NCBI GenBank assembly: GCA_036517395.1
Contig: DATDWN010000010.1
Coordinates: 33,922-97,921 of the forward strand
Direction: 5' to 3'
Length of the DNA: 64,000 nucleotides
From: Minisyncoccota bacterium
GTDB taxonomy: Bacteria; Patescibacteriota; Minisyncoccia; Phycocordibacterales; DATDWN01
A model generated the notes under the pieces. It searched no databases. It was not told where the DNA came from and saw only the letters and a list, made by a program, of their open reading frames with translations. Made by a program: the position numbers and the translations under genes. Below are positions 7,002 to 48,858 of the stretch, piece after piece; position 1 is the first letter of the stretch, and each line of letters begins with the position of its first letter.

Positions 7002-7137
7002 TGTCCGCACACCAACTCTGGCATTGTGTCTTCCGTTGCTAATGTTGATAATTTAAGCGACAAATGTCAGTTGGTCATTGTTTGATTACACTATAATTTT
7101 GACACAGATGCAACGATGCCAGAGTTGGTGTGCGGAT
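7002..7137. mobile_element. MITE-like element (family 1, CCAAC variant) with about 21-bp terminal inverted repeats tccgcacaccaactctggcat
   Basis: Left end tccgcacaccaactctggcat; right end atgccagagttggtgtgcgga. Non-coding interior. Confidence 0.75.
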
Positions 7138-7159
7138 AAAGTTATCCACAGTTTCTTTA

Positions 7160-7195
7160 TTGACAGGTGAACCAGCGTTCACTAAACTGTATTTA
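7160..7195 (+). promoter_or_regulatory. Promoter TTGACA-17-TAAACT with embedded Cheo-type LexA box GAACCAGCGTTC (7169..7180)
   Basis: GAAC-N4-GTTC palindrome lying exactly in the spacer between -35 and -10, upstream of the lexA operon. Confidence 0.6.
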
Positions 7196-7218
7196 TATAA
7201 AAACTAACACAAAATAAA

Positions 7219-7419
7219 ATGTCCAAAAACAATTTAGAAAAAACATTGAGGAAGGAGTTAGAAGTTTTGAACGATGTGATAGATAGGAGAATATTGCGAG
7301 GCTTGTCATACAGTCGGGAGGCAAAGAGGCACAAGTTTGTTCTCTCTAACTTGTCGAGGATTAGACGAGAGTCGAGTGTTGGTAGTGGTTGGCTGTCGAG
7401 ATCGTTTTCAATAATTTAG
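7219..7419 (+). CDS. Small basic hypothetical protein (66 aa), first gene of lexA operon
   Basis: ORF between the LexA-box promoter and lexA. No homology recognised. Confidence 0.3.
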   Translation: MSKNNLEKTLRKELEVLNDVIDRRILRGLSYSREAKRHKFVLSNLSRIRRESSVGSGWLSRSFSII

Positions 7420-7441
7420 ATTTGAAAAATTTCATAAAAAC

Positions 7442-8026
7442 ATGTCAGAAGAAAAATACATAGTACAGAAAAATAAAATCACCTCTTTCTACCAGAAGCA
7501 TCGGCGCATGCCTGGGTATAAAGAAATCATGGATATGGTTGGGTTCAAATCGAAGAACGCCGTTTACAAACTTATAAACAAGCTGGTGGAGGATGAAGTG
7601 GTGGACAAAGATTCCAAAGGCAGACTTACTCCGATAAAAATATTTGGAGCGATACCGCTTCTCGGTCTTGTCGAGGCTGGGTTTCCGACAAGCGTGGATG
7701 AAGATAGATCGGAATCACTGAGCATAGACGAGTATCTGGTTGGTGGGAGCAAACAAGGCTCAACATATTTGCTGGAGGTAAAGGGGGATTCGATGATAGA
7801 TGAAGGGATAAGAGAAGGTGATCTGGTTCTGGCCGAGAGGCGAGGCGATCCGAAAGACGGCGATATAGTTATAGCCGAGGTTGATGGTGGTTGGACTATG
7901 AAATATTTCAAAAAAAAGGGCGATTTGATTTACCTAAAACCGGCGAATAAAAATTACTCACCTATATATCCGCAGTATGACCTAAAAGTTGCGGCGATTG
8001 TTAAGGGGGTGATAAGGAAATATTGA
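7442..8026 (+). CDS. lexA: LexA repressor (S24 peptidase family)
   Basis: N-terminal wHTH. VEAG Ala-Gly cleavage site, GDSM serine and downstream Lys. 194 aa. Confidence 0.85.
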   Translation: MSEEKYIVQKNKITSFYQKHRRMPGYKEIMDMVGFKSKNAVYKLINKLVEDEVVDKDSKGRLTPIKIFGAIPLLGLVEAGFPTSVDEDRSESLSIDEYLVGGSKQGSTYLLEVKGDSMIDEGIREGDLVLAERRGDPKDGDIVIAEVDGGWTMKYFKKKGDLIYLKPANKNYSPIYPQYDLKVAAIVKGVIRKY

Positions 8027-8433
8027 TGATAGATAATGAGAGCAAGGAATACGATGTATGGAACAGATTGAAGAAAAAGATTCAATCTGGTTCAGATATA
8101 CCCAATTTTTTTCCACAGGAGGGTGAAGTATGGATGTCTTCACTTGGTAAAAACATTGGATTTGAACAAAATGGAAGTGGGGCTAACTTTTCCAGGCCGA
8201 TATTAGTAGTTAAAAAGTTTAATAACCACATGTTTTGGTGTACTTCACTTTCAACTAAACAAAAAAAGTTTGATTTCTACTACAATTTTACAGATCCGAA
8301 TAGAGAAAAAGTTTCTGTTATCCTTGCTCAGTTAAAGTTGGTTAGTGTCAAAAGATTAAAAAGAAAGTTATATGATATTTCATCAGGTAATTTTACAGAA
8401 ATAAAATGCAAATTAAGAGGATTTTTGGAGTAA
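8023..8433 (+). CDS. MazF/PemK-family toxin-like protein (endoribonuclease fold)
   Basis: GEVWMS..GFEQNG..RPILVV..CTSLST..VILAQLKLVSVKRL pattern matches the MazF/PemK fold. The ATGA overlap with the lexA stop suggests translational coupling. Confidence 0.55.
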   Translation: MMIDNESKEYDVWNRLKKKIQSGSDIPNFFPQEGEVWMSSLGKNIGFEQNGSGANFSRPILVVKKFNNHMFWCTSLSTKQKKFDFYYNFTDPNREKVSVILAQLKLVSVKRLKRKLYDISSGNFTEIKCKLRGFLE

Positions 8434-8437
8434 TCGA

Positions 8438-8460
8438 AATCCCACATCTCTGCGGGATTT
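8438..8460 (+). terminator. Stem-loop aaatccc-acatctctgc-gggattt after the lexA operon
   Basis: 7-bp perfect stem immediately after the mazF-like stop. The T-run is weak. Confidence 0.4.
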
Positions 8461-8542
8461 CTCGGAGCCTTTCGGCACTTTGTAACAAAAGTATATATGA
8501 ATGAATATAAATGTCAAGTATAAAATGTGGTAATATAAAAAT

Positions 8543-9726: not shown

Positions 9727-9733
9727 ATATCCC

Positions 9734-10379: not shown

Positions 10380-10452
10380 GATTAACTGTTGATATCGGAG
10401 GGTTACAAATTCCCTTGAGATGATATAATTAACACATTATCAGTTAGTCACA

Positions 10453-10574: not shown

Positions 10575-10582
10575 AACACAAA

Positions 10583-10837: not shown

Positions 10838-10975
10838 TTTCTGGTCTAATGTATGGGTGTAAAAAAGTCAATGGTTTGGGGCTAGTCCCGCAGTGAAGTT
10901 GGCATCTGTATTTTATGCACAGTAAATCTGTGCTAGACAGACTTCTACTACTGTGGATAACCCATTTGACATTAT

Positions 10976-11210: not shown

Positions 11211-11236
11211 TTATTTATTAAAAACATAAATTTTTT

Positions 11237-14200: not shown

Positions 14201-14434
14201 ATGGAAGTCTGGGCTCTTCTCGGTCACGGAGCGGCGCATACTTTGCAGGAAATTTTAACTATCAAATCAGACGATATTGTTGGTCGCTCGGCTGCCTTTG
14301 ATGCAATAGTTAAAGGTCTGCCAATAACACAGCTTAACACTCCAGCCTCGTTTAATGTGCTTCTGAACAATCTTCGCGGACTAGCACTTGATGTGCAGAT
14401 AAAGAAAGGGTCGAAGGAGGAGAAGATAACGTAA
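11237..14434 (+). CDS. rpoB: DNA-directed RNA polymerase subunit beta
   Basis: Full-length match to RpoB conserved blocks (e.g. the NMQRQAVP-like region, GDKLAGRHGNKGV). Compact, 1065 aa. Confidence 0.97.
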   Translation: MQNLPSATGVRPQKFFSRFKKPLLPTPNFVESQLNSFKWLTEKGLSEVFTEFSSIKDYSEKKFTLDFTGFELAQAKYDEYYAKDNKLSYEAPLKVKVRLKNHILGTEKEQEIFMADFPLMTSHGTFIISGIERVIVPQLARSYGVFFTASEVKGRKLFGAKIIPSRGAWVEIESDADGMIFVRIDRKRKFPGTTLLRVLGAKDDGAIKKLFEGDKFATAAIEKTLLKDHGKSIDEAYIEIHKRLRDGDLATAENAKEFIDSIFGGDRYDLSPVGRHMFNKRFNKKMTEAELKRKTLSLEDVVTIVSHIALLNNTPHAVEDDIDHLGTRRVRFVGELFQQNIRKGMAQIKRNIQNRMSTIDTDVTLPVQFVAPRPLQARIKEFFTTNQLSQFMLQENSLAEIEHLRTLSALGAGGLNRTRAGFEVRDVHTSHYGRLCPIHTPEGPNIGLVLRMAIYARINAFGMIETPYAKVKSGKVTDEIVYLNASQEEEYAIAHAATPVDETGKITVALVEVRKEGEPRAVPKDQVDFMDVSTSQAFSIATSMIPFLNHNKTDRALMASNMQKQATPCIVPEAPLVATGMETSAIRDTGRLVIAGEEGTVTHSDGLKVAVKNSKGKEIVHNLVRFSRTNGFTAFHQRPSVNVGDKVKLGDILADTSASQNGQSAIGQNMLTAFMSWGGSNYEDAIILSERVVKDSKFTSIHIEEFVVNVRDTKLGPEVTTCDIPNVGESKLKNLAEDGIVRVGAEVRSGDILVGKITPKGETQLTPEERLLRSLFGEKAHDVKDTSKRMEGGKRGRIIKVQIFSREKGDKLDSGIIKRIHIEVAQLRNVSVGDKLAGRHGNKGVISRILPEEDMPYMADGTPVDVILTPLGVPSRMNLGQILELHLGLAAHTLGYQAIVPPFIGATGQEIKAELVKAGFPESGKIKLFDGRTGEAFERDVAVGYMYIIKLHHMVEDKIHMRSIGPYSLITQQPLGGKAQNGGQRFGEMEVWALLGHGAAHTLQEILTIKSDDIVGRSAAFDAIVKGLPITQLNTPASFNVLLNNLRGLALDVQIKKGSKEEKIT

Positions 14435-14565
14435 TTTTCAATTATCAATTTTACAATTTACAATCAATTTTCAAATAACAATGAATTAATTTTCAAAATT
14501 AGAAATTGAAACATTGCAAATTCAATAAAAATTAAAAATTAAAAATTGGAAATTTATTCAACATC
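14435..14565. repeat. AT-rich intergenic repeat family B (caatt/aattg-rich, about 120 bp), copy 1
   Basis: Homologous to 61006..61116 and 61693..61812. Begins ttcaattatcaatttt and ends gaaattgg/aaaattgaaaattt. Confidence 0.7.
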
Positions 14566-17500: not shown

Positions 17501-18243
17501 AACCAAAAAATCCGGCTATCGTCTGTTCTGTTGGAGGCACTATTTCGGAAATACGCGTTACGGACAAGGAAAAAGTTATTGTTATAACTCCAAACCTGGA
17601 AGATAGAACCAAAACAAAAGACAAGATCGAATACTCGATTTCTCTCAACCGAACAGTTTTGGTCAAAGTCGGGGATGAAGTCAAAAAAGGCCAAATGATT
17701 ACGGACGGTTCGGCTGACATTGATGAGCTCTTCAAATTTGCTGGACGAGATAAAACTATTGACTATATTATTCACGAAATCAACAAGCCGTACGAACTTC
17801 AGGGAGAAACCGTTTCTCGAAAACATATTGAAACTATCGTTAGACAAATGTTCTCACGAAAGAGAGTGAAGTCCCCCGGGGATTCCGTTTTTCTAGAGGG
17901 AGATATTGTAGAGGAAGCATTCTTTGTTGAAGAAAATAATCGATTGAAGACTGAAGGGAAAGAAGAGGCCAAAGCCGAAGGAGTGGTTATGGGTATTACT
18001 GATGTTTCACTTTCTCGAAAGAGTTTCTTGGCGGCGGCTTCCTTCCAACACACAACGAGAATGCTTATCTCAAGCGCTATCAAGGGTAACGCTGACCAAC
18101 TTTCCGGGTTGATGGAAAACGTTATTCTAGGACGACTTATTCCGGCCGGTACTGGATTCAAGGGGAGCAAGAAAGCGGCGATGATTGCCGAAATGAGAGC
18201 GACCCGACCTGTGGTGTATGAAGATAGGAATCGATTTCAGTAA
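14566..18243 (+). CDS. rpoC: DNA-directed RNA polymerase subunit beta-prime
   Basis: Zn-binding CxxC..CxxC at the N-terminus, NADFDGD catalytic motif. 1225 aa. Confidence 0.97.
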
Positions 18244-18370
18244 TTAACCTAATTTCTAATTATTCTAATTAACCTAAATAATAACCAAGTTCCAATGAAT
18301 CAATTGGAATTTGTATGTTGGGATTTATTTAGAAATTAGAATAATTAGGTCAATTAGAAATTTTTAATCC
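18244..18370. repeat. Palindromic AT-rich intergenic repeat family A (aatttctaattattctaatt...ttagaaattagaataattagg), copy 1
   Basis: Near-identical to 54735..54850 and 28420..28505. Partial copies at 35100..35150 and 59190..59216. Confidence 0.75.
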
Positions 18371-21487: not shown

Positions 21488-21523
21488 CCACTTAACTTTA
21501 GCGGCCGCTAAAGTTAAGTGGGT
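21488..21523. repeat. 36-bp perfect palindrome cccacttaactttagcggccgctaaagttaagtggg
   Basis: Perfect inverted repeat. A related copy lies at 59155..59190. Confidence 0.8.
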
Positions 21524-21566
21524 TGAACTTATTCTGTTTCTTTACTTTAGATTCTAAAAATCAGAC

Positions 21567-21596
21567 AAATTTACTACAGTATACTGTAGTAAATTT
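21567..21596. promoter_or_regulatory. 30-bp perfect palindrome aaatttactacagtatactgtagtaaattt abutting a consensus promoter (operator-like)
   Basis: Perfect dyad symmetry, 5 bp upstream of the -35 hexamer. Confidence 0.5.
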
Positions 21597-21600
21597 GTGC

Positions 21601-21629
21601 TTGACAGTGGTGGCTGTTTGTGCTATCAT
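21601..21629 (+). promoter_or_regulatory. Sigma-70-type promoter TTGACA-17-TATCAT
   Basis: Exact -35 hexamer with 17-bp spacer. Confidence 0.5.
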
Positions 21630-21688
21630 GGATGGCAGAAATCTGAGAGGTGGATGCCCGTCTCCAAGCCAAGAAAGGGCTAAAACTC

Positions 21689-22243
21689 ATGCGTTTCACA
21701 ATTCGTCTCGTCGTCGTTCTCGGCCTTTTCCTTGGCTCCGCCATCCCGGCGAGCGCACAGGGCAAGGTGTCTGGTTCAGTCGAGGTGCAGAACGTGTTGA
21801 GTGAGAGTGGGGTCGTCCCGCAACTCGACGCGTACGTGCACGGGCCACTCTCGGGCAAGATCGGCTGGACGGTTTGGATGCTCGTGTCGAAGTCGTGGAG
21901 TGAGGGGCTCTTCGGGGTCACCTACGCGCCGGCCAAGTGGATCGAGGTGTCCGCGAGCGCTGGGCTGGAAAGCAACAAGAGCCCGTTTCGCGGCGCCGCG
22001 AGTATCTGGATGGGGAGTGGCAAGTACTCCTTCGTCTCGCTCCATGAAAAGGGTGGGAGCGGACGCTGGATGAAGAACGTGGCGACGTATGAGGTCAACA
22101 AGACTCTCACCGTCGGCGTTCTCCAACAGTCGTTCGTTGGGGTCGGCCCCTACGCCGCGGTCAAGGTGGGACGTATGACCATCTGGGGTGCGTACGCCGT
22201 CGCTGACGATCGCGGTTTGCTCACCGCGAAGTTCACGTTCTGA
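21689..22243 (+). CDS. Secreted small beta-barrel (OMP-like) protein, paralog 1; GC-rich
   Basis: Signal peptide MRFTIRLVVVLGLFLGSAIPASAQG. Alternating amphipathic strands. C-terminal ...AKFTF (terminal Phe). The ORF start is trimmed to the Met that carries the signal peptide. Confidence 0.5.
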   Translation: MRFTIRLVVVLGLFLGSAIPASAQGKVSGSVEVQNVLSESGVVPQLDAYVHGPLSGKIGWTVWMLVSKSWSEGLFGVTYAPAKWIEVSASAGLESNKSPFRGAASIWMGSGKYSFVSLHEKGGSGRWMKNVATYEVNKTLTVGVLQQSFVGVGPYAAVKVGRMTIWGAYAVADDRGLLTAKFTF

Positions 22244-22364
22244 GGGAGTCTCGTGTTGGTGGAGTTTCCCGAAAGGGGACTCCACCGGCAGGAGGCAGAG
22301 GTCCAGAGTAGAATTGTCTACTTCTGGGCTTTTTTCGTACTAAAAATTTCACAAATTTTTGAGG

Positions 22365-22393
22365 TTGACAGGGGCGTTTACTTAGTATATAAT
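22365..22393 (+). promoter_or_regulatory. Sigma-70 consensus promoter TTGACA-17-TATAAT
   Basis: Exact consensus hexamers with 17-bp spacer. SD GGAGGG precedes the ATG at 22444. Confidence 0.55.
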
Positions 22394-22443
22394 AAAAACA
22401 GAAAATCGAGAGGCAGAAACCCGTTTCTAAGGCCGGAGGGCAC

Positions 22444-22995
22444 ATGAAAATAAGCGTCGTTGCCGTTCTACTTGCGCTCGTCGCAGGGACGGCGCAAGCG
22501 CAAGAGCCTGAGGCAAAGATCTCGGGGTTCGTTGAGTCGTACAATCAAATTGTGCGGGGAGAGAAACTCAACTCCTCACTCAACCTGTACATCGAGGGGC
22601 CTATCAAGGGCAGGCTCGGCTGGGCCACTGTGCTCTGGGTCCAGAAGGATTGGACCGAGTGGATGGGCGGTTTCACGGTGACTCCTGCACCGTGGATCGA
22701 GTTCATCGCTGTCCTTGGCGGCGAGACCGACGATCGGCCGCTTCGCGGATCCGGAATCCTCTGGCTCTCGAAGGCGGGTCTGACCCTCGAGGCTGAGTAC
22801 GAAGCTGGTGGAAGTGGAACTTGGTACAGGGCGAACGCCAAGTACAAAGTCCATTTCCTCTCGCTCGGCGTCAACTCGGTTGCCGACGTCGGCACCGGAC
22901 CCTACCTCGAGCTTGGCCTGGGCAAGTGGGATCTCTGGGGGTCCTACGTTGTCAAAGCCCACGGCGGAGTTTTTGGACTTCGTCGCAACTTCTGA
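22444..22995 (+). CDS. Secreted small beta-barrel (OMP-like) protein, paralog 2; GC-rich
   Basis: Signal peptide MKISVVAVLLALVAGTAQA. Alignable to paralog 1 (GRLGWATVLWVQKDW vs GKIGWTVWMLVSKSW). C-terminal ...RRNF. Confidence 0.5.
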   Translation: MKISVVAVLLALVAGTAQAQEPEAKISGFVESYNQIVRGEKLNSSLNLYIEGPIKGRLGWATVLWVQKDWTEWMGGFTVTPAPWIEFIAVLGGETDDRPLRGSGILWLSKAGLTLEAEYEAGGSGTWYRANAKYKVHFLSLGVNSVADVGTGPYLELGLGKWDLWGSYVVKAHGGVFGLRRNF

Positions 22996-23131
22996 CTTCT
23001 GTAATGTCTCAGTCGTCCGAGTTGACTCGCGAGGGTGGAACCTGATTTCAGGGTTCCACCATCGCGAGTTTTTTGATACAAGGAATTTGTAATTTATGAT
23101 ACTATTGATGCAGAACTGATTTGGAGGGACC

Positions 23132-23305
23132 ATGGACCAGCCAATTGAGGAGGCGGGAACGGAGAGACTCTGTCCTTATTGCCACAGCTGGAAAGTGGCT
23201 CCTTTCATAGGAGATTACTACCGCTGTGCCAATGAAGGATGTTATAGACTGATTGAAAAAGATGAACTGCTGGTTCGCAAGGTGAACCAGCCCGAGGGAG
23301 AGTGA
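23132..23305 (+). CDS. Small zinc-ribbon protein (57 aa); GC-rich
   Basis: CPYC...CANEGC. SD GGAGGG at 23123. Below the 60-aa cutoff of the ORF track, so translated by hand. Confidence 0.35.
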   Translation: MDQPIEEAGTERLCPYCHSWKVAPFIGDYYRCANEGCYRLIEKDELLVRKVNQPEGE

Positions 23306-23306
23306 C

Positions 23307-23759
23307 ATGGATGCTACTGATCTCATCCGGCCAGTCAACTTGTTCGAGCAAGATTTCAGCCGTGCAACCGAGGCCGAACGCGAACAAGTGGTGGCACTCT
23401 TACGGGTTTTCATGGCGAGGTTGCGTATCATTCTACGTGGGTGTGAACCCATGGTGAGAAAGGTCACCCCGCAGAACGAAGAGCGTTGCGCGACGTGCGC
23501 TTTCAACCCAGTGACGGACTCTCTCCCAGGGTTTGCTCTCACTGCCTATGGGGTTCTCCAGTGCATCTACAACGACCAGAAGGCTTTTCTCTGCCATGGT
23601 GAAAATCCTGACTGGGAGGATCAGCACCTGATCGACCCCGCGAACCCTATCCTGTGCAACGGCTTCCTTGCAGTTCGGCTCTACGCCGGCATCAGTGCGG
23701 CCCTTCTCGCTATCCGTACGATGAAGGCTATTAGGAAGGTTGTTCCAAAAAGTCCGTAA
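23307..23759 (+). CDS. Hypothetical protein (150 aa); GC-rich
   Basis: Start abuts the zinc-ribbon stop (TGAcATG). Followed by hairpin cgtagaa..ttctacg at 23791..23818. Confidence 0.4.
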   Translation: MDATDLIRPVNLFEQDFSRATEAEREQVVALLRVFMARLRIILRGCEPMVRKVTPQNEERCATCAFNPVTDSLPGFALTAYGVLQCIYNDQKAFLCHGENPDWEDQHLIDPANPILCNGFLAVRLYAGISAALLAIRTMKAIRKVVPKSP

Positions 23760-23833
23760 ATGCGGACAAGAAAGGTGTCCGACCAGCCTCACGTAGAATT
23801 GCCTCGGCCCTTCTACGCGGGGCTTTTCTACTA

Positions 23834-23972
23834 CATCCGCACACCAACTTTGCTCTCATTGCATCCAGTCTCAAAATCTAGATGCACATCTAAGATTTAG
23901 ATATGATTTCCAACTTTTGCTTTAGTCTATATGTAGCAATAGGGAGACAAGAGCAAAGTTGGTGTGCGGATA
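23834..23972. mobile_element. MITE-like element family 1 (CCAAC variant; inverse orientation relative to the 45390 copy)
   Basis: Ends catccgcacaccaactttgctct / agagcaaagttggtgtgcggata. Interior shares gcatccagtctcaaaatctagatgcacatc with the 47607 copy. Confidence 0.8.
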
Positions 23973-24106
23973 CATCCGCACACCAACTTTGCCATCGTCC
24001 TGCTTTTTCAAAAAACTTACTCCTGCTTTATAATTTTTGTTGTAATTTGCTTAAAGTACACCTTAAATCAGGACATAAAAAGTAATGGCAGGGTTGGTGT
24101 TCGGAT
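23973..24106. mobile_element. Degenerate MITE-like element family 1, in tandem with the previous copy
   Basis: Intact left end catccgcacaccaactttgcc. Degenerate right end gggttggtgttcggata. Unrelated interior. Confidence 0.55.
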
Positions 24107-24130: not shown

Positions 24131-27085
24131 ATGTCATCAGACAAAATCTTCGAAGAACGATATAAAAATCTAAACCAGGAACAGAAAAAAGCCGTTGATA
24201 CTATTGAGGGTCCGGTTATGGTTGTGGCCGGTCCCGGCACTGGTAAGACCACGATTCTGACCCTGCGTATTGCCCAGATTTTGCGTAAAGCCACAGGGGT
24301 TTCCGCCAATGCTATTTTAGCTATTACCTACACAGACGCTGGAGTGAAAGTGATGAGAAGCAAACTACGAGAAATTATAGGCAACACCGCCCATGATGTT
24401 TACATTCACACATTCCACTCTTTTGCATCTAGCATGATAGCAGAGTACCCGGATCACTTTTTAAATATAAATGATTTTCGTCAAATAACTCCGGTCGAAC
24501 AAGAGAGTTTGGTAAGAGAAATAATTACAGAACCAAAGTTCAAAGACCTGCGACCTCTGGGCAAACCGGACGCCTATTTGTCGGGAATTATTCGCGCCAT
24601 AGGTGACGCAAAAAAAGAAGCTTTGATTCCCGAAATGGTTGCTGAAAACGCCCTAAAACAAATAAAAAAAATAGAAGAAGACGAAGACAGCATCTCAACG
24701 CGTGGGGCGACGAAGGGCCAACTCAAAGCTGATGCTTTAGAGAGTATAGAGAAATTGAAAAAGACCATTCTTTTTGCCAGAGTTTATGACCGCTATGAGC
24801 AAATAAAAAGGGAGAAGAAACTTCGTGACTATGACGACCTTATTGTTGAGCTTTTGGTGGCTTTGCAGAACGATGAGCTTTTTCTGCGTCTTGTCCAAGA
24901 AAGATTTCTCTATATCTTAGTTGATGAACATCAAGATACGAACGATTCACAAAACTTTATTATTGCTCTCTTGGCTGAGTTTTTCGAGACACCAAATATT
25001 TTTATTGTGGGGGATGAAAAGCAGGCCATATATCGTTTTCAGGGTGCTTCTGTAGAGAACTTTCTTCGTTTACGCAAGAGGTGGCCGGATATGCAACTTA
25101 TTCACCTCGATACAAACTATCGTTCGCACCAGTCCATACTGGATGCTGTTTGGAGCATGATTGAGAATAATTATGATGGGGAAGAGCACAAAGACTTGCG
25201 GGTTAAACTAAAATCCGAATCTGGGGAAAAGAAGAAACCAGTGGATATTGTCACCGCTGAAAATACTCTGGCTATGGAGGAATATTTGATAGGTGAACTG
25301 AAACGAATTACTTCCGATGATCCAGAGGCCAGTGTAGCGATTATTGTTAGGCGTAATCGAGAACTAGAAAGAGTGCTCCGGTTTCTTGATTTGCGTGGAG
25401 TAGAGGTTTCTTCCGAAAGAAGCGTTGATATATTTCACCATCCTATTGGTATGGCCTTTTTTGACCTTATTGAATATATAAACGACCAGACCAAAATCGA
25501 ATCACTAGCAAAGTCCTTGGCCAGTGGATTGTGGGGACTGTCTCATGTATCCTCAATAGAACTTATTCGCTCTATTGCAAAAGAAGAGTTGGGAAATTTG
25601 GATAAGATTTTACCACAACTAAAAGCCATAAGAGAGAGGATGCTTTCCGATGGCGCTCTTGAAGCTTTGATTTTCATCGCGGAATCCTCTGGTCTTACGG
25701 ATATTATTGCTCGCAATCCTGCCAATGTGTCGGTCTGGCGCGGTATCGTTACTTTGGCTGAGTCCGTAATAAGAGACACACAGGCGGATAATCCGGCGGA
25801 ACTTTTCGCTAGTTTGCTTTCATATCGAGATTCGGCCGAACTAAAACCGGTTAAAGTTTCTGTTGGCGCACCAGATTTGAAAATCAAGGCCATGACCGCT
25901 CATGGTTCCAAAGGTTTGGAATTTGATTATGTTTTTATACCATATGCTACGGAAGAGGCTTGGGTCGGTCGTGTTTGGGGTTCGTCTTTTATTTTGCAGG
26001 ATAGAAACTTTGGCGATCATAATGTCGAGGATATAAGACGGCTTTTTTATGTTGCTATAACCAGAGCCAAGAAACATGTCAGTGTTTTGTATGCCAAAGA
26101 AGAGTCTGATGGACGAGTTTTGACCCCACTTAGATTTATAAATGAGTTGTATTCAAAAGATGTCAAATCGATTGAACTATCGAGAGTCCAGCTTGCTTTG
26201 GATTTTCAGGAAGTAAAAGCAAAGAAAAACAAAACGGATGAAAAAGACAACCAGTACCAGAAGCTCATGATAAATGAGGCCAAAAAAGTCCTAACGGAAA
26301 ATGGTCTTTCGGTGACAGCCCTGAATCATTTTCTGGAATGTCCGAGCAAGTTTTTGTATGAGAGTATTTTGAAGTTGCCACAGGCGCCGAGTGCCTCCTC
26401 GGAGAAGGGTACGGCCATGCACGAAGCTATCTCGGAGATTTGGAGATCAAAGAGGGGTGGGGTGGAAGATATTGAAAAAATTATCACATCAATCACAGCG
26501 GAATATATTGACAGATCTCTAATATCCAAAGGTGATAAGGAGGCTTTGAAAAAGGAACTTGCTCTTAACGCTCCGGCTGTTGCCAAGTCACTTTTTCCTC
26601 ATTTTACCACTACATCAAAAACCTCTGTTGAGAGATGGGTGGAAGCGCCCTTCGACACATCTTATGATAAAGAAAAAATCACAATACATGTACATGGAAA
26701 ACTTGATGTTATTTTAGAAGATTTGGACGAGGTATCCGTTTTTGACTACAAGACACGACAGGCCATGTCTGTGGCTAACATAAAAGGCCAAAACAAGGGC
26801 AACGAAAATGGAAACTATTTCAGACAGCTTGTTTTTTATAAACTGCTTTTGGAAAATGTTCACTTGGGCAGGAATAAGAAGGTTTCCACTTCCTTGGTTT
26901 TTGTTTCTCCTGATGATAAAGGTAGGTGTCCGATTATAACTCTAGAAGTAACATCAGATGATATTAAGAAAGTTAAAGATGAGATAAATGATTTAATAGA
27001 GAATGTTTGGAATGGCGAGTTCGTTAGACACTACTGCAGTAATGCAAACTGCTCATACTGTGCTTATCGTAAACTACTTCAATAA
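24131..27085 (+). CDS. UvrD/PcrA-family ATP-dependent helicase fused to a C-terminal RecB-like PD-(D/E)xK nuclease with Cys cluster (AddB/Cas4-like)
   Basis: GPGTGKT Walker A, DEHQDT Walker B. C-terminal VFDYKT nuclease motif and a CSNANCSYC cysteine cluster. Confidence 0.8.
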   Translation: MSSDKIFEERYKNLNQEQKKAVDTIEGPVMVVAGPGTGKTTILTLRIAQILRKATGVSANAILAITYTDAGVKVMRSKLREIIGNTAHDVYIHTFHSFASSMIAEYPDHFLNINDFRQITPVEQESLVREIITEPKFKDLRPLGKPDAYLSGIIRAIGDAKKEALIPEMVAENALKQIKKIEEDEDSISTRGATKGQLKADALESIEKLKKTILFARVYDRYEQIKREKKLRDYDDLIVELLVALQNDELFLRLVQERFLYILVDEHQDTNDSQNFIIALLAEFFETPNIFIVGDEKQAIYRFQGASVENFLRLRKRWPDMQLIHLDTNYRSHQSILDAVWSMIENNYDGEEHKDLRVKLKSESGEKKKPVDIVTAENTLAMEEYLIGELKRITSDDPEASVAIIVRRNRELERVLRFLDLRGVEVSSERSVDIFHHPIGMAFFDLIEYINDQTKIESLAKSLASGLWGLSHVSSIELIRSIAKEELGNLDKILPQLKAIRERMLSDGALEALIFIAESSGLTDIIARNPANVSVWRGIVTLAESVIRDTQADNPAELFASLLSYRDSAELKPVKVSVGAPDLKIKAMTAHGSKGLEFDYVFIPYATEEAWVGRVWGSSFILQDRNFGDHNVEDIRRLFYVAITRAKKHVSVLYAKEESDGRVLTPLRFINELYSKDVKSIELSRVQLALDFQEVKAKKNKTDEKDNQYQKLMINEAKKVLTENGLSVTALNHFLECPSKFLYESILKLPQAPSASSEKGTAMHEAISEIWRSKRGGVEDIEKIITSITAEYIDRSLISKGDKEALKKELALNAPAVAKSLFPHFTTTSKTSVERWVEAPFDTSYDKEKITIHVHGKLDVILEDLDEVSVFDYKTRQAMSVANIKGQNKGNENGNYFRQLVFYKLLLENVHLGRNKKVSTSLVFVSPDDKGRCPIITLEVTSDDIKKVKDEINDLIENVWNGEFVRHYCSNANCSYCAYRKLLQ

Positions 27086-28419: not shown

Positions 28420-28505
28420 GGGAATGAATTGACCTAATTATACTAATTATTTCTAATTAATCTAAATAATAACCAAATACCAAATTAGAAATTAGAACAA
28501 TTAAG
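28420..28505. repeat. AT-rich palindromic intergenic repeat family A, copy 2 (shorter)
   Basis: ctaattatttctaattaatctaaataataaccaaa...aattagaaattagaacaattaagttaattagaaataat. Confidence 0.65.
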
Positions 28506-29789: not shown

Positions 29790-29817
29790 GTGGGTTATTG
29801 TTAGTTTAGAATCTCTT

Positions 29818-29972
29818 TCTCACCAAAACCTTTTTGGAAACAGAATAAATTTCTGCTGAAATTTTTCTTCAGCGCTCGGAGCTCAAGTAAATTATCAATT
29901 GATTACAATTGTAATTTTCTAAGCTCTTGTGCGATGTTCCAAAAAGATTTTGCCTCGACGAGATTCTAAAGA
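29818..29972. repeat. 155-bp MITE-like repeat family 2, copy R1 (inverted relative to R2), immediately upstream of hisS
   Basis: About 95% identical to the reverse complement of 34058..34210. Internal 17-bp inverted termini caaaacctttttggaa. Contains the 12-bp palindrome ttacaattgtaa. Confidence 0.8.
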
Positions 29973-34057: not shown

Positions 34058-34210
34058 AGCCCAATCTCGTCGAGGCAAAACCTTTTTGGAACATCGCGCA
34101 GGAGCTTAGAAAATTACAATTGTAACCAATTGATAATTTACTTGAGTTCCGAGCGTGAAGAAAAATTTCAACAGAAATTTATTCTGTTTCCAAAAAGGTT
34201 TTGGTGAGAA
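34058..34210. repeat. 155-bp MITE-like repeat family 2, copy R2, immediately upstream of the DedA-like gene
   Basis: Matches the reverse complement of R1. Termini caaaacctttttggaac ... gtttccaaaaaggtttt. Confidence 0.8.
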
Positions 34211-34244
34211 AGAGATTGGGCGAATTGTGTGCTAAAATGTCTCA

Positions 34245-34841: not shown

Positions 34842-35114
34842 TTGACTTATAATATAGAGATGACAGAGACACTACCTCCACTTACACTACCCACCATTCC
34901 ATATATAAATCTACCTTTTCTTTTTAGTCTGCAAATACTCATGGTTATTTTTGTTCTGTTTCTAATAACATATCTTATTGTGTCCGCGGTTTTGTTTTAC
35001 CACTGGACATCATATGGTATGCGCAGTTTTGGTATATTAGTGGCGGAAACGCTGTTTACCATAGTTTCGGTTACGCTTTTTACCGTGGCTGGTTTAGCCC
35101 TGCATTATTTTTAG
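34842..35114 (+). CDS. Small membrane protein (90 aa)
   Basis: Two hydrophobic helices. Confidence 0.3.
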   Translation: MTYNIEMTETLPPLTLPTIPYINLPFLFSLQILMVIFVLFLITYLIVSAVLFYHWTSYGMRSFGILVAETLFTIVSVTLFTVAGLALHYF

Positions 35115-35151
35115 AAATTAGAATAATTAGGTTAATTAGAAATTTAATAAT

Positions 35152-35694: not shown

Positions 35695-35858
35695 AAAGTC
35701 CATAAAGGCAAAAGTCCATAAAGCAAAGTTTGGAATAAATTCTATTCACTTTTGACTTTATAGACTTTGAGGACTTTATGGACCAATCCAAGTAATCCAC
35801 AGATGTGGGTTTATTCTTCTGCCAGTTATTGTTATAATTAATCCGTTATTATTAATTT

Positions 35859-35993
35859 ATCCGCACACTAACCTTGGTATTGTCTCCCTGTTGTGACATA
35901 AAAAGTTAAACAAAAGTTAGAGATATATTTAAATTTGGGATGTATCTCCAGAATCTGAGACTGGAGGCAACGATACCAAAGTTAGTGTGCGGA
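35859..35993. mobile_element. MITE-like element family 1 (CTAAC variant)
   Basis: Ends atccgcacactaaccttggtattgtctccctgttg / caacgataccaaagttagtgtgcgga. Confidence 0.8.
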
Positions 35994-36007
35994 CATGTTT
36001 TTTATAT

Positions 36008-36209
36008 GAAATCATTACATATGGTTACATTTATCCTTCTAATAGTTGGAGGACTAGCATGGGGACTGCACGCTTTTGGTTATGACCCAATAGACAGTCT
36101 TGGTTCATCGGTTTCTATGATTGTCTATGTTCTAGTTGGTCTGTCAGCAATATATGAGGCTATTAGTCACAAGGGCCTGTGTCGCAATTGTTCCAGTAGT
36201 AGTATGTAG
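36008..36209 (+). CDS. DUF378-family small membrane protein
   Basis: LIVGGLAWGLHAFG...YVLVGLSAIYE pattern. The start is chosen downstream of the MITE; the ORF track starts at 35940, inside the MITE. Confidence 0.45.
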
Positions 36210-45092: not shown

Positions 45093-45096
45093 GTCA

Positions 45097-45278: not shown

Positions 45279-45389
45279 TCAACAGTTTGTGAACAGCTTG
45301 TGCCCTTTTAGGGTTTATTTTTTATTGACTTATTTATTTTGTGATAATAGAATATTAATATTAGATTAAGAATTAATAATTAGTTAATA

Positions 45390-45527
45390 CATCCGCACAC
45401 TAACTTTACTCTTGTCTCCCTGTTGCTACATTAAGAGTCAAGCAAAAGTTAGGGATCATATCTGAGTTTAAGATGTACATCTAGATTTTGAGACTGGATG
45501 CAATGAGAGCAAAGTTAGTGTGCGGAT
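45390..45527. mobile_element. MITE-like element family 1 (CTAAC variant)
   Basis: catccgcacactaactttactcttgtctccctgttgc...gcaatgagagcaaagttagtgtgcggata. Ends 9 bp before the ATG of the 45537 gene. Confidence 0.8.
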
Positions 45528-45536
45528 AAATAAATC

Positions 45537-45800
45537 ATGTTAAAAAGAATTAAATCAATAATAGAGGATTCGATGTCAAATCAAACAAGAAACATAAAAA
45601 GTGGATTTAGGGCTTTAACAATGTGCAAGAAGTGCTACACATTTTATTACAAAAAAGCTTGGCATTTTGAAAGGCCGGAGTATCTGGATGATTATGTTGA
45701 GCAAGAAGTACCTGTGCGCTTTACAGAGTGTCCAGCCTGCTTGGAACAGGATGAAGCTTTGTTTGAAAAAGAATCAAGTTTAGTTTTGAGTAGAGTATAG
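45537..45800 (+). CDS. Small zinc-ribbon protein (87 aa)
   Basis: CKKC...CPAC cysteine pairs. Confidence 0.4.
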   Translation: MLKRIKSIIEDSMSNQTRNIKSGFRALTMCKKCYTFYYKKAWHFERPEYLDDYVEQEVPVRFTECPACLEQDEALFEKESSLVLSRV

Positions 45801-45859
45801 AAGCCCAAGTCAGAAAATATGTTTTTGTTTTGCAATATCTAGCCGCTACCAACGGCTAG

Positions 45860-46450: not shown

Positions 46451-46558
46451 TATTTTGAACATTAAAACGGCATTAATAATGTTAGGTCAAATCAAAGGTC
46501 GGCCCATACAAACAAAAACACAATATACAAAACAATAGGATTAAATTAATAAATAATT

Positions 46559-46692
46559 CATCCGCACACTAACTTCCGTTTTGTCTCCCAGTTGCGACAT
46601 CGGTGGTTATACAAAAGATGCCTTATCCCTAAACGGGGATGTGCATCTAAACTCTGAGACAGGGCAACGAGACAGAAGTTAGTGTGCGGATA
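46559..46692. mobile_element. MITE-like element family 1 (CTAAC variant)
   Basis: catccgcacactaacttccgttttgtctcccagttgc...gacagaagttagtgtgcggata. Ends 7 bp before the ATG of the 46700 gene. Confidence 0.8.
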
Positions 46693-46699
46693 AAATAAT

Positions 46700-47344
46700 A
46701 TGACAAATACAACAACCTTAAATCGAAAGCTTACTTTGGGAATCGCAGGAATCTTGTCCGTTTTCATGTTTGGTATCGCTTATACTGCTTCTGCTGCGAC
46801 GTTATATCGTCAGTTGCAGTTCGGCATGAGTGGTTCTGATGTTTCAGACCTTCAAGTTTTTCTAGCCAAGGATGTCGCTATCTATCCACAGGGATTGGTT
46901 ACAGGATACTTTGGCAACCTTACAAAATCAGCAGTGGTTAACTTCCAAAATCGAAACGGTATCTCTCCAGTAGGTCGTGTCGGTCCAATAACAATGGCGG
47001 CAATAAATGTCCAGATGGGTAGCGACAGTAGCTCTCCATTTATCGGTGCAGTTTCTGTTAGCACTTCAAATAACTTTGCAACTCTCAACTGGAACACAAA
47101 CGAGAATGCTTCAGCAGTAATCTATTACTCGACTATGCCTATCTCTATGATAGAAGGTAGCCCAACAACAGGAGTGACTATTGGTGGTTCAAGTCTACTC
47201 GTTCACACAGATCTTCGTTCTGTACATTCAGCAAGCATAACGGGATTACAAGCAAACACTACATATTACTTCGTTGTATATGTAAGAGATGGTGCTGGTA
47301 ATGAGAGTATCTCATGGCCTTCAACATTTACTACTGCACAATAA
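46700..47344 (+). CDS. Secreted protein: peptidoglycan-binding (PG_binding_1-like) domain plus Fn3-like domain
   Basis: Signal peptide. LQFGMSGSDVSDLQVFLA...GYFGNLTKSAVVNFQ matches the PG-binding repeat. NTTYYFVVYVRDGAGN matches the Fn3-like repeat. Confidence 0.6.
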   Translation: MTNTTTLNRKLTLGIAGILSVFMFGIAYTASAATLYRQLQFGMSGSDVSDLQVFLAKDVAIYPQGLVTGYFGNLTKSAVVNFQNRNGISPVGRVGPITMAAINVQMGSDSSSPFIGAVSVSTSNNFATLNWNTNENASAVIYYSTMPISMIEGSPTTGVTIGGSSLLVHTDLRSVHSASITGLQANTTYYFVVYVRDGAGNESISWPSTFTTAQ

Positions 47345-47349
47345 ACAAT

Positions 47350-47499
47350 ATGTTAACTACTATAGCGGTTGTACTAGTTATCTTGTGGCTACTTGGGGTT
47401 GTCACGGCACACACTATCGGCGGGTTCATCCACATCTTACTTGTTATAGCAATAATAATAGTTCTGATTAGGGTGATTCGTGGCGAGAAAGTACTATAA
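47350..47499 (+). CDS. Small membrane protein (lmo0937-like, about 50 aa)
   Basis: MLTTIAVVLVILWLLGVV...IHILLVIAIIIVLIRVI. Internal start chosen. Confidence 0.4.
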   Translation: MLTTIAVVLVILWLLGVVTAHTIGGFIHILLVIAIIIVLIRVIRGEKVL

Positions 47500-47606
47500 A
47501 AAGTCACAAAACTAAAGAAAAACTATCGAGTCAAATCGATGGTTTTTCTTTGTAATACTTTTCCCTTTCTGGCGTCTTCATTAATATAAGATTAATAAAT
47601 AATGTA

Positions 47607-47744
47607 CATCCGCACACTAACTTTGGTATGGTTGCATCCAGTCTCAAAATCTAGATGCACATCCCAATTTAGATACAATTTCTAACTTTTGCCTAACTCA
47701 ACATATGGCAACAGGGAGACAATACCAAAGTTAGTGTGCGGATA
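47607..47744. mobile_element. MITE-like element family 1 (inverse orientation)
   Basis: catccgcacactaactttggtat...ggcaacagggagacaataccaaagttagtgtgcggata. Ends 7 bp before the ATG of the 47752 gene. Confidence 0.8.
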
Positions 47745-47751
47745 AAAATTT

Positions 47752-48843
47752 ATGAATAAAATAGCAATTCTAGTCGGTGGCATTATTGTAGTCGCCGCAG
47801 TTATCGGGGGTCTGGTTTACATGAGTCGCGGTAGTGCAGTTGACTCAAACGCCACAACCACACCTTCGATTGCCACAGGTGACACTGGTGGTACAGTGGC
47901 AAACTCACCTCAAGCAGGAGTGCCTACAGTCGTCACAAGTTCAAATGTTTCTCCTACAAACACCACAGCTATCGTAAACGGAAATGTCAATCCTAAAGGT
48001 GCTTTCACCAGCTACTGGTATGAGTTTGGCACAAGCTCTGATTTGGGTAACAAGACTACAAACCAAACACTTGGCTCGGGTTTTGTTCAGATTTCAGCTC
48101 CGGGGTATATCACCGGTCTTTTAAAAAATACCACATACTACTTTCGTCTAGTGGGTGAAAATAAATACGGAAGAGTAGCCGGTACCATATACTCGTTTAG
48201 CACAAGCGAAAATAACCCAGCTCCAGTCGGAAGTGCTCCAATCTCAAAAACAATAGCCGCTTCGGGTATTTCTCGAACGACAGCTAACTTAAATGGAGAA
48301 GTCACACCAAACAAATCCTTCACTTCTGTCTGGTTTGAATATGGCAAGACAGCGGATTTAGGTAACACCACAGCATTTTCTTCTGTCGGAGATGGCAGTA
48401 GCAAACTTACAACCTCAGTATCGCTTTCTGGTTTGGATCCTCTAACTACTTATTACTTTCGCTTGAACGCTCAAAATCAGTTTGGCACAATCAACGGTTC
48501 TATATTGAATTTCAAGACGACAGGTCCAACATCTGCAAAAGCGCCGAGTGTAACAACAGGCAACGCTAGCGCCATCTCGGATTCTGGAGCAACTTTGCAT
48601 GGCACGGTTAATCCTAACTTAGCTGATACGACATATTGGTTTGAATACAGTACGGACTCACTTTTAGGTTCAGTTCTGCTTCAATCGACAGATCCTGTCT
48701 CCTTAGGGGCTGGTAGTAGTCCAATGTCTGTAGACGCTGCCATCACAGATCTCAACTCAAAAACTAATTATTACTTTCGCCTAGTTGCCCAAAATTCTCT
48801 TGGCACTGTTCGTGGTGATAAAGTAACATTTAAAACTAAATAA
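47752..48843 (+). CDS. Secreted protein with four tandem Fn3-like repeats
   Basis: Signal peptide and TM anchor. Repeated (T)TYYFRLVA(Q/E)N...F(K/S)T signature (x3-4). Confidence 0.6.
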   Translation: MNKIAILVGGIIVVAAVIGGLVYMSRGSAVDSNATTTPSIATGDTGGTVANSPQAGVPTVVTSSNVSPTNTTAIVNGNVNPKGAFTSYWYEFGTSSDLGNKTTNQTLGSGFVQISAPGYITGLLKNTTYYFRLVGENKYGRVAGTIYSFSTSENNPAPVGSAPISKTIAASGISRTTANLNGEVTPNKSFTSVWFEYGKTADLGNTTAFSSVGDGSSKLTTSVSLSGLDPLTTYYFRLNAQNQFGTINGSILNFKTTGPTSAKAPSVTTGNASAISDSGATLHGTVNPNLADTTYWFEYSTDSLLGSVLLQSTDPVSLGAGSSPMSVDAAITDLNSKTNYYFRLVAQNSLGTVRGDKVTFKTK

Positions 48844-48858
48844 ATCCGAACACTAACA
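48844..48858. mobile_element. Remnant of family-1 MITE terminus (atccgaacactaac)
   Basis: Matches 13 of 14 positions of the MITE terminus. Lies upstream of yggT-like. Confidence 0.35.

Follow-up and report, generated by a model that had tools for sequence, protein, structure and literature searches.

The described systems closest to the repeats reported here differ widely in how they are built and how they move. The Correia (NEMIS) elements of Neisseria are palindromic repeats of approximately 100–155 bp with inverted ends of about 26 bp, and they come in two size classes. They occupy many intergenic sites near genes, with which they are transcribed as long hairpins; a TA duplication, outward promoters and an IHF site are further characteristics, and we know of no coding partner for them. 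REPINs, which carry a GTAG/CTAC tag, are usually found at the 3′ ends of genes, and the RAYT protein is an HUH/Y1 enzyme of approximately 150 aa or more whose gene is usually single-copy. The elements of the IS200/IS605 group encode an HUH Y1 transposase, have subterminal hairpins rather than long terminal inverted repeats (TIRs), and measure at least 600–700 bp. The ERIC/IRU and RUP/BOX repeats are imperfect palindromes of approximately 107–127 bp within transcribed intergenic regions, where they can alter mRNA stability. The UvrC/HEase lineage includes the GIY-YIG homing enzymes, which possess DNA-binding domains, act on one cognate allele and lack inverted ends (PMC1564403).

The window, by which we mean the whole 64,000-nt stretch of DNA that was analyzed, contains seven repeat copies of 131–139 bp each and one solo end (Table 1), all at the positions given by the first-pass annotation. 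The family core is TCCGCACACYAAC (17 matches in the window, approximately 2 expected), and the 10-mer ATCCGCACAC, with at most one mismatch, occurs 17 times compared to 2.07 ± 1.5 in shuffled sequence; 15 of these 17 occurrences are element ends. The annotated TIRs form a near-perfect terminal stem of 22–26 bp in each copy (z of −6.4 to −9.8 for the fold against dinucleotide shuffles). The solo end matches the family consensus at 13 of 14 positions, the sole mismatch being the common TCCGAACAC variant. Internal blocks, said to be shared by all copies, are common to six; the interior of the copy at 23973–24106 is unlike the others and defines a second subfamily (B). Both orientations do occur, as the interiors of the copies at 23834 and 47607 are reversed relative to the remaining ones. 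All copies are intergenic. A search of the window against Rfam at the gathering threshold found only tRNA-Asn and gave no match to the repeats.

Table 1. Repeat copies, putative transcription signals and downstream genes, by position in the window.
Feature	Position	Strand	Remarks
Copy 1, subfamily A	7002..7137	+	After the terminator of the upstream gene; 82 nt before small ORF 7219-7417; 304 nt before lexA
Copy 2, subfamily A, flipped interior	23834..23972	+	88% identity to copy 5; abuts copy 3
Copy 3, subfamily B	23973..24106	+	Ends 24 nt before ATG 24131 (UvrD/PD-(D/E)XK helicase-nuclease)
Copy 4, subfamily A	35859..35994	+	Ends 11 nt before ATG 36006 (DUF378); orthologous site empty in L197
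Copy 5, subfamily A	45390..45527	+	Ends 9 nt before ATG 45537 (87-aa ORF, no family)
Copy 6, subfamily A	46559..46692	+	Ends 7 nt before ATG 46700 (PG_binding_1 + Fn3 protein)
Copy 7, subfamily A, flipped interior	47607..47744	+	Ends 7 nt before ATG 47752 (Fn3 protein); orthologous sites empty in L197 and L199
Solo end ATCCGAACACTAAC	48844..48857	+	Right after stop 48843; 9 nt before ATG 48867 (YGGT)
Terminator-like hairpin	35794..35811	+	Upstream of copy 4
Best sigma-70-like site, TTGACT-17-TAGAAT	45325..45353	+	After terminator-like hairpin 45302-45314; 36 nt upstream of copy 5
Terminator-like hairpin of upstream gene	47513..47552	+	AT-rich stretch to copy 7 is the only promoter room
UvrD-type helicase, C-terminal PD-(D/E)XK nuclease	24131..27085	+	3′ of copy 3
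DUF378 membrane protein	36006..36209	+	3′ of copy 4
PG-binding + Fn3 protein	46700..47344	+	3′ of copy 6
Fn3-type protein	47752..48843	+	3′ of copy 7; 55-74% identity across Parcubacteria

Beyond the window, a metagenome scan for the TIR recovered 63 distinct paired copies at 55 loci. All are in low-GC contigs of the groundwater ultra-small (CPR) bacteria, to which paired elements were restricted in this census. The ends read (TTYA)TCCGCACACYAACTTTGG...CCAAAGTTRGTGTGCGGA(TRAA), with approximately 21 bp that pair perfectly; across the seven window and 63 public copies the arms span 21–26 bp. Public copies fall into two length classes, 129–139 nt (approximately 134) and 59–74 nt (approximately 68), and into a few interior subfamilies that recur at different loci. 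The arms covary: pair 16/57 is UA 44 times and CG 17 times and is never unpaired, pair 25/48 is CG 41 times and UA 21 times, and pair 24/49 takes four pair types. The covariation score (0.172 vs 0.130 ± 0.006) was exceeded in 0 of 500 shuffles. A strand test for selection at the RNA level, based on G·U vs A·C mismatches (79 vs 61, p = 0.15), was not significant. The flanks are frequently TA...TA, and they are asymmetric (TTCA vs TAAA) with a polarity that tracks gene direction. No target-site duplication was found among direct repeats of 2–8 nt at boundary offsets of 0–5, which were not above control; the sole excess was a compositional 4-nt TAAA/TAAA effect (12 of 67). Some copies follow stop codons or lie between convergent genes.

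Five of the window copies end 7–24 nt before the ATG of a long ORF, much as annotated, with the correction that the DUF378 gene starts at 36006 rather than 36008. This placement is genuine and recurs in other genomes: an outward ORF start lies within 45 nt in 39 of the 63 copies, mostly at 3–15 nt, and a start codon lies within 15 nt in 26 of 50 copies, compared to 13.8 expected under uniform placement. Gene calling at these loci was crude, with ORFs accepted from ATG only and from 60 aa upward, and the enrichment is only approximately two-fold because intergenic gaps in CPR genomes are short. The terminal GGATAAA had been thought to stand in for a ribosome-binding region. Considering that Shine-Dalgarno sites are almost absent from this genome, it is not a replacement for one. 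TATAAT-N6-7-ATG contexts are present in the window, and many genes look leaderless. A TATAAT-like hexamer lies outside the element, with its end exactly 3 nt upstream of the gene-distal arm (on average 3.9 of its 6 positions match at this offset, vs approximately 2.1 at other offsets), and similar AT-rich sequence is found at the empty sites of relatives. Our promoter scan of the window gave no excess of sites and detected none inside the element, and a promoter there is not supported. Of the two functions that the first-pass annotation had offered, promoter or 5′ UTR, a transcribed leader is thus likelier than a promoter donor. With Shine-Dalgarno sites lacking and genes that look leaderless, the element most likely forms a hairpin within the 5′ leader; in the predicted folds the AUG is left unpaired. 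A transcript begun at the sigma-70-like site upstream of copy 5 would include that entire element in its leader.

It had also been suggested that the element coordinates a surface-protein set, three of the served genes being counted as Fn3-repeat or PG-binding genes. Only the genes at 46700 and 47752 are of this kind, and the ORF at 45537 has no Pfam match. The idea of a surface-protein set fails on the genes that adjoin family members, which include those for the UvrD/PD-(D/E)XK helicase, DUF378, lexA, rpoB, copA, xseA and a CtpB-like protease. The genes next to the copies at 45.4–48.9 kb are conserved chromosomal genes of Parcubacteria; the Fn3 genes in the 45–49 kb cluster are paralogues. 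Movement is apparent from the related L168, where one element precedes lexA by 9 nt and a second precedes rpoB; the window has none at either place, and its own copy lies upstream of the small ORF (7219-7417) instead. Orthologous sites are empty in L197 and L199. Since the sites of relatives are empty or differently filled, the family has moved. This insertion polymorphism is confined to comparisons between related species; within the window population, nine assemblies show no difference, orientation included, and neither a transposition event nor an excision footprint was seen.

The description of the copies as MITE-like and non-autonomous stands. Copies of 59–139 nt have no coding capacity, seven of them adjoin unrelated genes within 64 kb, and a Pfam search of a subset of the window ORFs found no mobilizing gene. 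An autonomous IS with the same TIR had been envisaged, and a same-ended coding form does exist, but it is no classical IS. At each of six separate loci, exactly 300 bp with a single 88-aa GIY-YIG ORF are enclosed by these ends, and all six 88-aa genes examined (65–91% identical) lie inside such exact units. The ATG is 25 nt from the left end, the stop codon falls within the right arm, and the ORF fills the whole interior in the orientation of the downstream gene. This form obeys the same flanking rules as the gene-less copies, and compensatory changes in its arms alter even the last codon. The ORF is under purifying selection (dN/dS of 0.05–0.30). With dS of approximately 1–2 between them, the sampled copies are old and not fresh transpositions. 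A 230-nt internally deleted copy shares a contig with an intact one, contigs L165, L181 and L184/L112 each carry the coding form together with MITEs, and in L187, which comes from the same sample as the window, a 300-bp copy lies beside 32 nt that match the AT-rich repeat of the window at 97%. No other ORF-bearing version was found among more than 60 loci. The interiors of the MITEs and of the GIY-YIG element have no significant similarity (median z of 0.2), and thus it is only by their ends and flanking rules that the two are linked. These point to the 300-bp form as the likely autonomous partner of the gene-less copies.

By its sequence, the 88-aa protein is a GIY-YIG nuclease of the Slx1/UPF0213 type. 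PF01541 is the precomputed assignment for all protein matches, the YVY...YVG, R, H and E motifs can be recognized in the translated sequences, and the closest solved proteins by phmmer are the UPF0213 members 1zg2 (E = 2.4e-4) and 1ywl (E = 3.7e-3). It consists of the catalytic domain, without a DNA-binding domain. UPF0213 proteins are prokaryotic Slx1-like proteins, and the lineage is viewed in the literature as a family of repair proteins with vertical inheritance (PMC1564403). Distant homologues (59–61% identity) lack TIRs. Elsewhere in CPR, small GIY-YIG genes behave selfishly, one example being that within the 23S rRNA in L149.

The family shares with Correia/NEMIS its palindromes, two size classes and intergenic sites near genes. 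It differs in having no duplication, a −10-like hexamer that is outside the element, no enrichment in the promoter scan, a 300-bp coding form and a tight proximity to start codons. Like REPIN-RAYT, it combines non-autonomous hairpin repeats and pairing arms with a small non-DDE nuclease gene flanked by the repeat; here, however, the enzyme is an 88-aa GIY-YIG protein, its gene is inside the element, and copies are 5′ of genes. The very small size, end hairpins, absence of a target-site duplication, one-sided asymmetric target motif and orientation bias recall IS200/IS605, but the only ORF of the coding form is PF01541 and not an HUH protein. A small selfish GIY-YIG gene between host genes is also known from the free-standing Seg-type homing genes of phage T4 and the rRNA-intron endonucleases of CPR. 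In contrast to homing endonucleases, the present form has a bare Slx1/UPF0213-like domain, inverted-repeat ends, gene-less derivatives and six different insertion contexts. ERIC/IRU and RUP/BOX, also imperfect palindromes in transcribed intergenic regions, are unrelated to the family in sequence, lack its phasing to start codons and are not known to have a coding partner that shares their ends. In common with MITEs, the family has TIRs, small non-coding members in many copies, a same-ended autonomous form and sites filled or empty between species; a fixed-length target-site duplication was not found, and the ORF of the autonomous form encodes a GIY-YIG nuclease, unlike the transposases of known IS families.

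On balance, the sequence comparisons favor the reading that all seven copies belong, as non-autonomous members, to a hairpin-ended mobile family of CPR/Patescibacteria, with the 88-aa nuclease as its putative mobilizer. The nuclease would mobilize both the 300-bp and the gene-less forms and, unlike a DDE cut-and-paste enzyme, would probably act on the hairpin or cruciform of the arms. The elements may land, or survive, in an A/T-rich AAT-T-Y-A stretch immediately ahead of a start codon. This would place them either in the interval from the −10 box to the ATG, in genes that would otherwise be leaderless, or in the gap that separates a stop codon from the ATG that follows it. The host promoter would then transcribe the element as a long 5′ hairpin, with the A-rich linker and AUG staying single-stranded, and in the 300-bp form the captured promoter would express the nuclease ORF ahead of the host gene.

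The elements could instead be mobile with the GIY-YIG gene as a passenger, a secondary insertion into the loop, and another, unsampled enzyme as the mobilizer. We regard this as unlikely. The unrelated MITE interiors, the bare catalytic domain, the selfish small GIY-YIG genes elsewhere in CPR (as in the L149 23S rRNA) and the homologues without TIRs all speak for a passenger, but the architecture is identical at all six loci, compensatory arm changes reach the last codon, the ORF is under purifying selection, and no other ORF-bearing version was found among the loci sampled. Quite improbable is a classical MITE of a DDE-transposase IS elsewhere in the genome, such as one of the IS630/Tc1-like kind that targets TA. 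TIRs, small size, many copies and the frequent TA...TA flanks agree with it; the direct repeats and the asymmetric, gene-tracking flanks do not, and no ends paired 0.7–3.5 kb apart enclose a transposase. The one transposase match (IS1595-like, L010) was a chance coding match.

An immobile cis-regulatory leader, whether an RNA hairpin or a protein-binding palindrome, inherited vertically or through gene duplication, would account for the start-codon position, the phased −10-like box, the arm covariation and the accessible AUG, and given the paralogous Fn3 genes part of the 45–49 kb cluster could be a duplication. It is nonetheless highly unlikely, as the copies at 23834 and 45390 share 88% identity at unrelated loci, the elements occupy different positions in orthologous regions and their sites can be empty in relatives, the family includes an ORF-bearing form and a decayed copy, some copies follow stop codons or lie between convergent genes, and Rfam has no match. 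We give very little weight to invertible promoter switches (invertons) for phase variation of surface proteins. Inverted repeats do bracket a short segment upstream of the Fn3 and PG-binding genes, with interiors in both orientations, yet the nine independent assemblies have one orientation, the window ORFs scanned include no recombinase gene, the same elements precede rpoB, lexA, copA and xseA, and no promoter was detected inside. Integron attC-like sites separating gene cassettes at 45.4–48.9 kb would fit the spacing of approximately 1.1 kb, the invariant AAC...GTT cores, the variable center and the length range. This reading is barely credible: an integrase was not found, core genes and conserved chromosomal genes adjoin the copies, conservation continues for 9–13 nt outside the cores, and the perfect stems lack extrahelical bases.

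For the organism, the likeliest role of the elements in the window is that of leader hairpins that are tolerated or have a mild regulatory effect, not that of a signal for a dedicated regulon; effects on mRNA stability or on RNase III processing are possible. For the mobile family built around the 88-aa nuclease, we tentatively suggest that it may represent an undescribed class of prokaryotic mobile element. Its autonomous unit would be 300 bp, with an 88-aa Slx1-like nuclease as the only protein; this would recognize the hairpin or cruciform of its own ends, insert without target duplication in the transcription-start region of leaderless genes, capture the host promoter and spawn abundant gene-less derivatives in CPR. 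The smallest IS elements of which we are aware measure approximately 600–700 bp. If the proposal is correct, the 300-bp autonomous unit would be smaller than any of these.

The seven gene-less, hairpin-ended repeats of the window and the solo element end at 48844 (the half-site) lie exactly where the first-pass annotation placed them, as we confirmed by rereading all the regions. The 10-mer ATCCGCACAC (at most one mismatch) has 17 matches in the window, compared to 2.07 +/- 1.5 in dinucleotide shuffles, and 15 of the matches mark element ends. Aligned to each other, the seven copies show a mean column identity of 74%, with the invariant blocks TCCGCACAC.AAC and GTT.GTGT.CGGA. Every copy folds as a rod with a near-perfect terminal stem of 22-26 bp (z = -6.4 to -9.8). 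Both orientations occur, as had been described, the interior being flipped in copies 23834 and 47607. The interior was also said to be shared by all; this holds for six copies (subfamily A), and copy 23973-24106 has a different one (subfamily B). The pairings GTCTC/GAGAC and ACAT/ATGT are conserved within the subfamily A interior, and covariation outside the arms is slight. An Rfam scan of the window returned only tRNA.

A census of the inverted ends in public data, as the annotation had proposed, was performed in two scans. The first, with a 16-mer against species-representative genomes, was swamped by chance matches: only 9 of its 116 loci held a paired element, and ends paired 60-140 nt apart occurred in CPR records only (Saccharibacteria, a Paceibacterota MAG and a Taylorbacteria genome). 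Unpaired matches inside an IS1595-type transposase gene (L010) and an FKBP-type gene (L023), both CPR, were chance coding matches and not element ends. The second scan, with a more specific 24-nt pattern, yielded 55 metagenome loci, all of low GC. Together the scans gave 63 distinct paired elements, of 129-139 nt (n = 51, mode 134-135), 59-74 nt (n = 10), 96 nt (n = 1) and 300 nt (n = 1). Their interiors sort into few subfamilies, one with 24 copies (six from the window) and another with 10 (including 23973). Half elements were seen at two public loci (L147 from 5812 onward, L176 from 5568 onward); in these, the left arm survives together with about 90 nt of the interior, the 3' end of a convergent gene stands in place of the right arm, and the ATG of a divergent gene lies 10 nt outside the surviving arm.

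The source population of the window is a Parcubacteria-type CPR of the Rifle aquifer. Nine ENA or Logan assemblies contain identical contigs, so that flipped or empty alleles sought within this population were not found. Relatives of the window Fn3 protein (55-74% identical) are labelled Patescibacteria, Pacebacteria, Kaiserbacteria and Yonathbacteria. The window genes are ordinary chromosomal ones (dnaG, rpoD, hisS, truB, bipA, lexA and a UvrD-type helicase by Pfam; rpoB by its match in the related locus L168 and gene order). GC content is unusually high in two segments (21500-23800 and 5961-6938; 0.50-0.54, compared to 0.41 overall), where both strands carry ORFs that overlap and Pfam gives no match.

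Comparison with related genomes revealed the empty sites that insertion would leave. In L168, whose lexA is 74% identical to that of the window, one element separates lexA from a small ORF, its end 9 nt short of the lexA ATG, and a second precedes rpoB. Both sites are empty in the window, whose own copy lies on the upstream side of the small ORF. In a second relative (L197), with a 72% identical Fn3 protein, both DUF378 and the Fn3 gene lack a preceding element, and in a third (L199) the gap before the Fn3 gene measures 21 nt. Two window copies at unrelated loci, 23834 and 45390, share 88% identity. Target-site duplications, which the annotation had suggested looking for, were absent at 2-8 nt with any boundary offset, and this sets the family apart from DDE-type MITEs. 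The window copies belong, as non-autonomous members, to a mobile family with hairpin ends.

Covariation was tested on a gap-free alignment that took in both arms of all 63 elements. The variable arm positions remain complementary: pair 16/57 is UA in 44 elements, CG in 17 and unpaired in none, pair 25/48 is CG in 41 and UA in 21, and pair 24/49 takes all of GC, CG, UA and AU. Both the covariation score and the count of double changes exceeded all 500 shuffles and all slid controls. Because the identity of a position is free while complementarity is retained, the data favour pairing between the arms, in RNA or in single-stranded DNA, or copying of one arm from the other; if a protein recognised each arm separately, such retention would not be expected. 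A strand-specific test for selection at the RNA level, which compared G.U with A.C on the sense strand, gave no significant result overall. The fixed T.G/C.A mismatch at position 22 gives an interior orientation of 23:8 relative to the downstream gene.

Five window ends sit 7-24 nt before an ATG, with 74-297 nt free on the opposite side, in keeping with the first description (the DUF378 start is ATG 36006, not 36008). An outward ORF starts within 45 nt of one end in 39 of the 63 copies, mostly at 3-15 nt. On crude gene calls, 26 of 50 copies had a start within 15 nt; placing the copies uniformly within their own gaps predicts 13.8, and none of 100,000 simulations reached 26. CPR/Patescibacteria genomes are extremely compact. 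Several copies occupy the whole space between two cistrons, one arm lying 0-4 nt after a stop codon and the other 4-9 nt before an ATG. The gene-oriented flanks are asymmetric, reading ..tatAAT-T/A-C/A-A, then the element (TCCGCACAC ... GTGTGCGGA), then TAAA-N-ATG. The last base of a TATAAT-like hexamer falls exactly 3 nt before the gene-distal arm; matches there average 3.9 of 6 (at least 5 in 13 of 38 copies), compared to about 2.1 at other offsets and 2.7 at the mirrored site. Since comparable AT-rich sequence is present at the empty sites of relatives, the hexamer is part of the target and not of the element. A sigma-70 scan of the window regions found 13 sites against 10.1 expected. The order in these regions is terminator, AT-rich stretch, element and ATG, and the A-rich linker and AUG are unpaired in RNA folds. 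The simplest reading places the element in the transcribed leader, with transcription probably starting at or just before the left arm. We infer a leader hairpin that may bring stability and RNase III effects on the served genes.

Several functional readings were weighed against this placement. The suggestion that the end GGATAAA stands in for a ribosome-binding region fails, because the organism largely lacks Shine-Dalgarno initiation and appears to use leaderless or A-rich starts: GGAG-type motifs are nearly absent upstream of 55 window genes. TATAAT followed by 6-7 nt and ATG occurs at many window genes (for example 54351, 56369 on the minus strand, and 60319), which suggests widespread leaderless mRNAs. 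A surface-protein regulon was not borne out, as genes of many kinds follow family members. Two downstream genes, rather than the three claimed, have Fn3 or PG-binding domains. A LexA box, suggested by the copies near lexA and the UvrD-type helicase, was discarded: the ends do not form a local palindrome, and copies also stand before many unrelated genes. The end also reads TTATCC-GC-ACA, like a DnaA box, for which the window shows no enrichment (2 matches, 0.6 expected). The attC and inverton readings were both rejected. A perfect TTATCCACA is present at 7142-7150, and a DnaA-box-like 9-mer (TTATCCACA/TGTGGATAA) adjoins an element end there, just after 3275 in L181 and at about 7680 in L168.

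A search for an autonomous insertion sequence with the same ends had been suggested. The ends were indeed found elsewhere around a 300-bp coding unit; the enzyme is a GIY-YIG nuclease. The 300-nt element of L165 has one ORF, starting 25 nt from the left end and stopping at a TAG within the right arm (GTTAGTG), with an 88-aa GIY-YIG product. A database search with this protein returned 336 relatives, the majority of 88 aa and from Paceibacterota or Patescibacteria. The DNA of five further members (65-91% identity) was fetched, and at all six loci the unit measures exactly 300 bp end to end, in a different gene context at each. The flanks are alike in all six (TATAAT, GATAAT or an AT-rich hexamer, then TTCA or TAAA, then TCCGC...GCGGA-TAAA-N-ATG), and the ORF and the downstream gene always point the same way. 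The inner arms co-vary (CTCTCATTT/AAATGAGAG versus CCCTCATTT/AAATGAGGG) even at the price of an altered last codon. Purifying selection acts on the ORFs (dN/dS 0.05-0.30, dS about 1-2). Two remoter homologues (59-61% identity, 83-86 aa) are without such ends. The same contigs host coding and gene-less forms. A contig with an intact 300-bp copy also carries a 230-nt copy with an internal deletion. A test of whether the MITEs arose from the 300-bp form by deletion showed no significant similarity between the interiors. None of the window ORFs is of the 88-aa GIY-YIG type. A contig from the same sample (L187) has a 300-bp copy directly downstream of a 32-nt, 97% match to the third repeat of the table, and the coding partner of the window genome probably lies elsewhere in the genome. 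Insertions in CPR rRNA genes are known, and a small GIY-YIG ORF without inverted ends was seen inside an apparent 23S rRNA gene (L149, 2590-3039).

The closest solved proteins to the 88-aa nuclease are the UPF0213 proteins 1zg2 and 1ywl. Proteins of this type are regarded as minimal prokaryotic Slx1-like nucleases, contrasted with selfish GIY-YIG lineages and viewed as vertically inherited repair proteins (PMC1564403). Since eukaryotic Slx1 is structure-specific (PMC1564403), the nuclease would likely mobilise the elements through the structure formed by the paired ends. By inserting just downstream of a -10-like AAT-TYA site, the promoter-less 300-bp unit would likely use the host promoter. 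A full-text literature search of incomplete coverage returned neither small mobile CPR/Patescibacteria repeats (MITEs) nor inverted-repeat-flanked UPF0213/GIY-YIG elements, and an earlier description of either is possible.

Repeat features of the window and of a related locus
Feature	Sequence	Source	Coordinates
Hairpin-ended elements (starts)		Window	7002, 23834, 23973, 35859, 45390, 46559, 47607
Second repeat, AT-rich, palindromic, intergenic	TTCTAATTAACCTAAATAATAACC ... TTTAGAAATTAGAATAATTAGGTCAATTAGAAATTT	Window	18242-18363, 28451-28519, 35110-35145, 54740-54849
Third repeat, AT-rich, ~120 nt	AATTTTCAATTATCAATTTTACAATTT...	Window	14429-14555, 60993-61113, 61687-61805
Inverted repeats, ~156 nt, 90-98% complementary		Window	29810-29965, 34063-34217
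Self-complementary sequence, 30 nt, two copies	CATTCCTACATTCTCAAGAATGTCGGAATG	Window	3949-3978, 4282-4311
Sister palindromic family, two adjacent copies	ends TTYATCCAGGCACYAA...	L168	7424-7678

The second repeat terminates a few nt before start codons (dnaG 18371, 35152, and on the minus strand hisS 29789 and 54836); thus more than one repeat family occupies this position in the window genome. The third lies in intergenic gaps before rpoC and two other genes. The ~156-nt repeats enclose a 4.1-kb block (truB, a 110-aa ORF, bipA and a 210-aa ORF) and could mark a past or possible inversion. The 30-nt copies bracket a 97-aa ORF (4005-4298), and the ends of the sister family resemble TTYATCCGCACACYAAC yet are distinct.

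Several contigs of the window population's assemblies terminate at the hairpin-ended repeats; these break metagenome assemblies and could be used as strain markers. An element between a -10 box and a start codon, in a genome without Shine-Dalgarno sites, is a natural experiment on the ways in which a structured leader of 135 nt is tolerated, or exploited, by leaderless genes. If the 88-aa protein mobilises the elements, a nuclease family would be added to the short list of DNA-moving enzymes, a minimal autonomous element would be defined, and part of the widespread, uncharacterised UPF0213/YhbQ-like proteins would gain a biological role.
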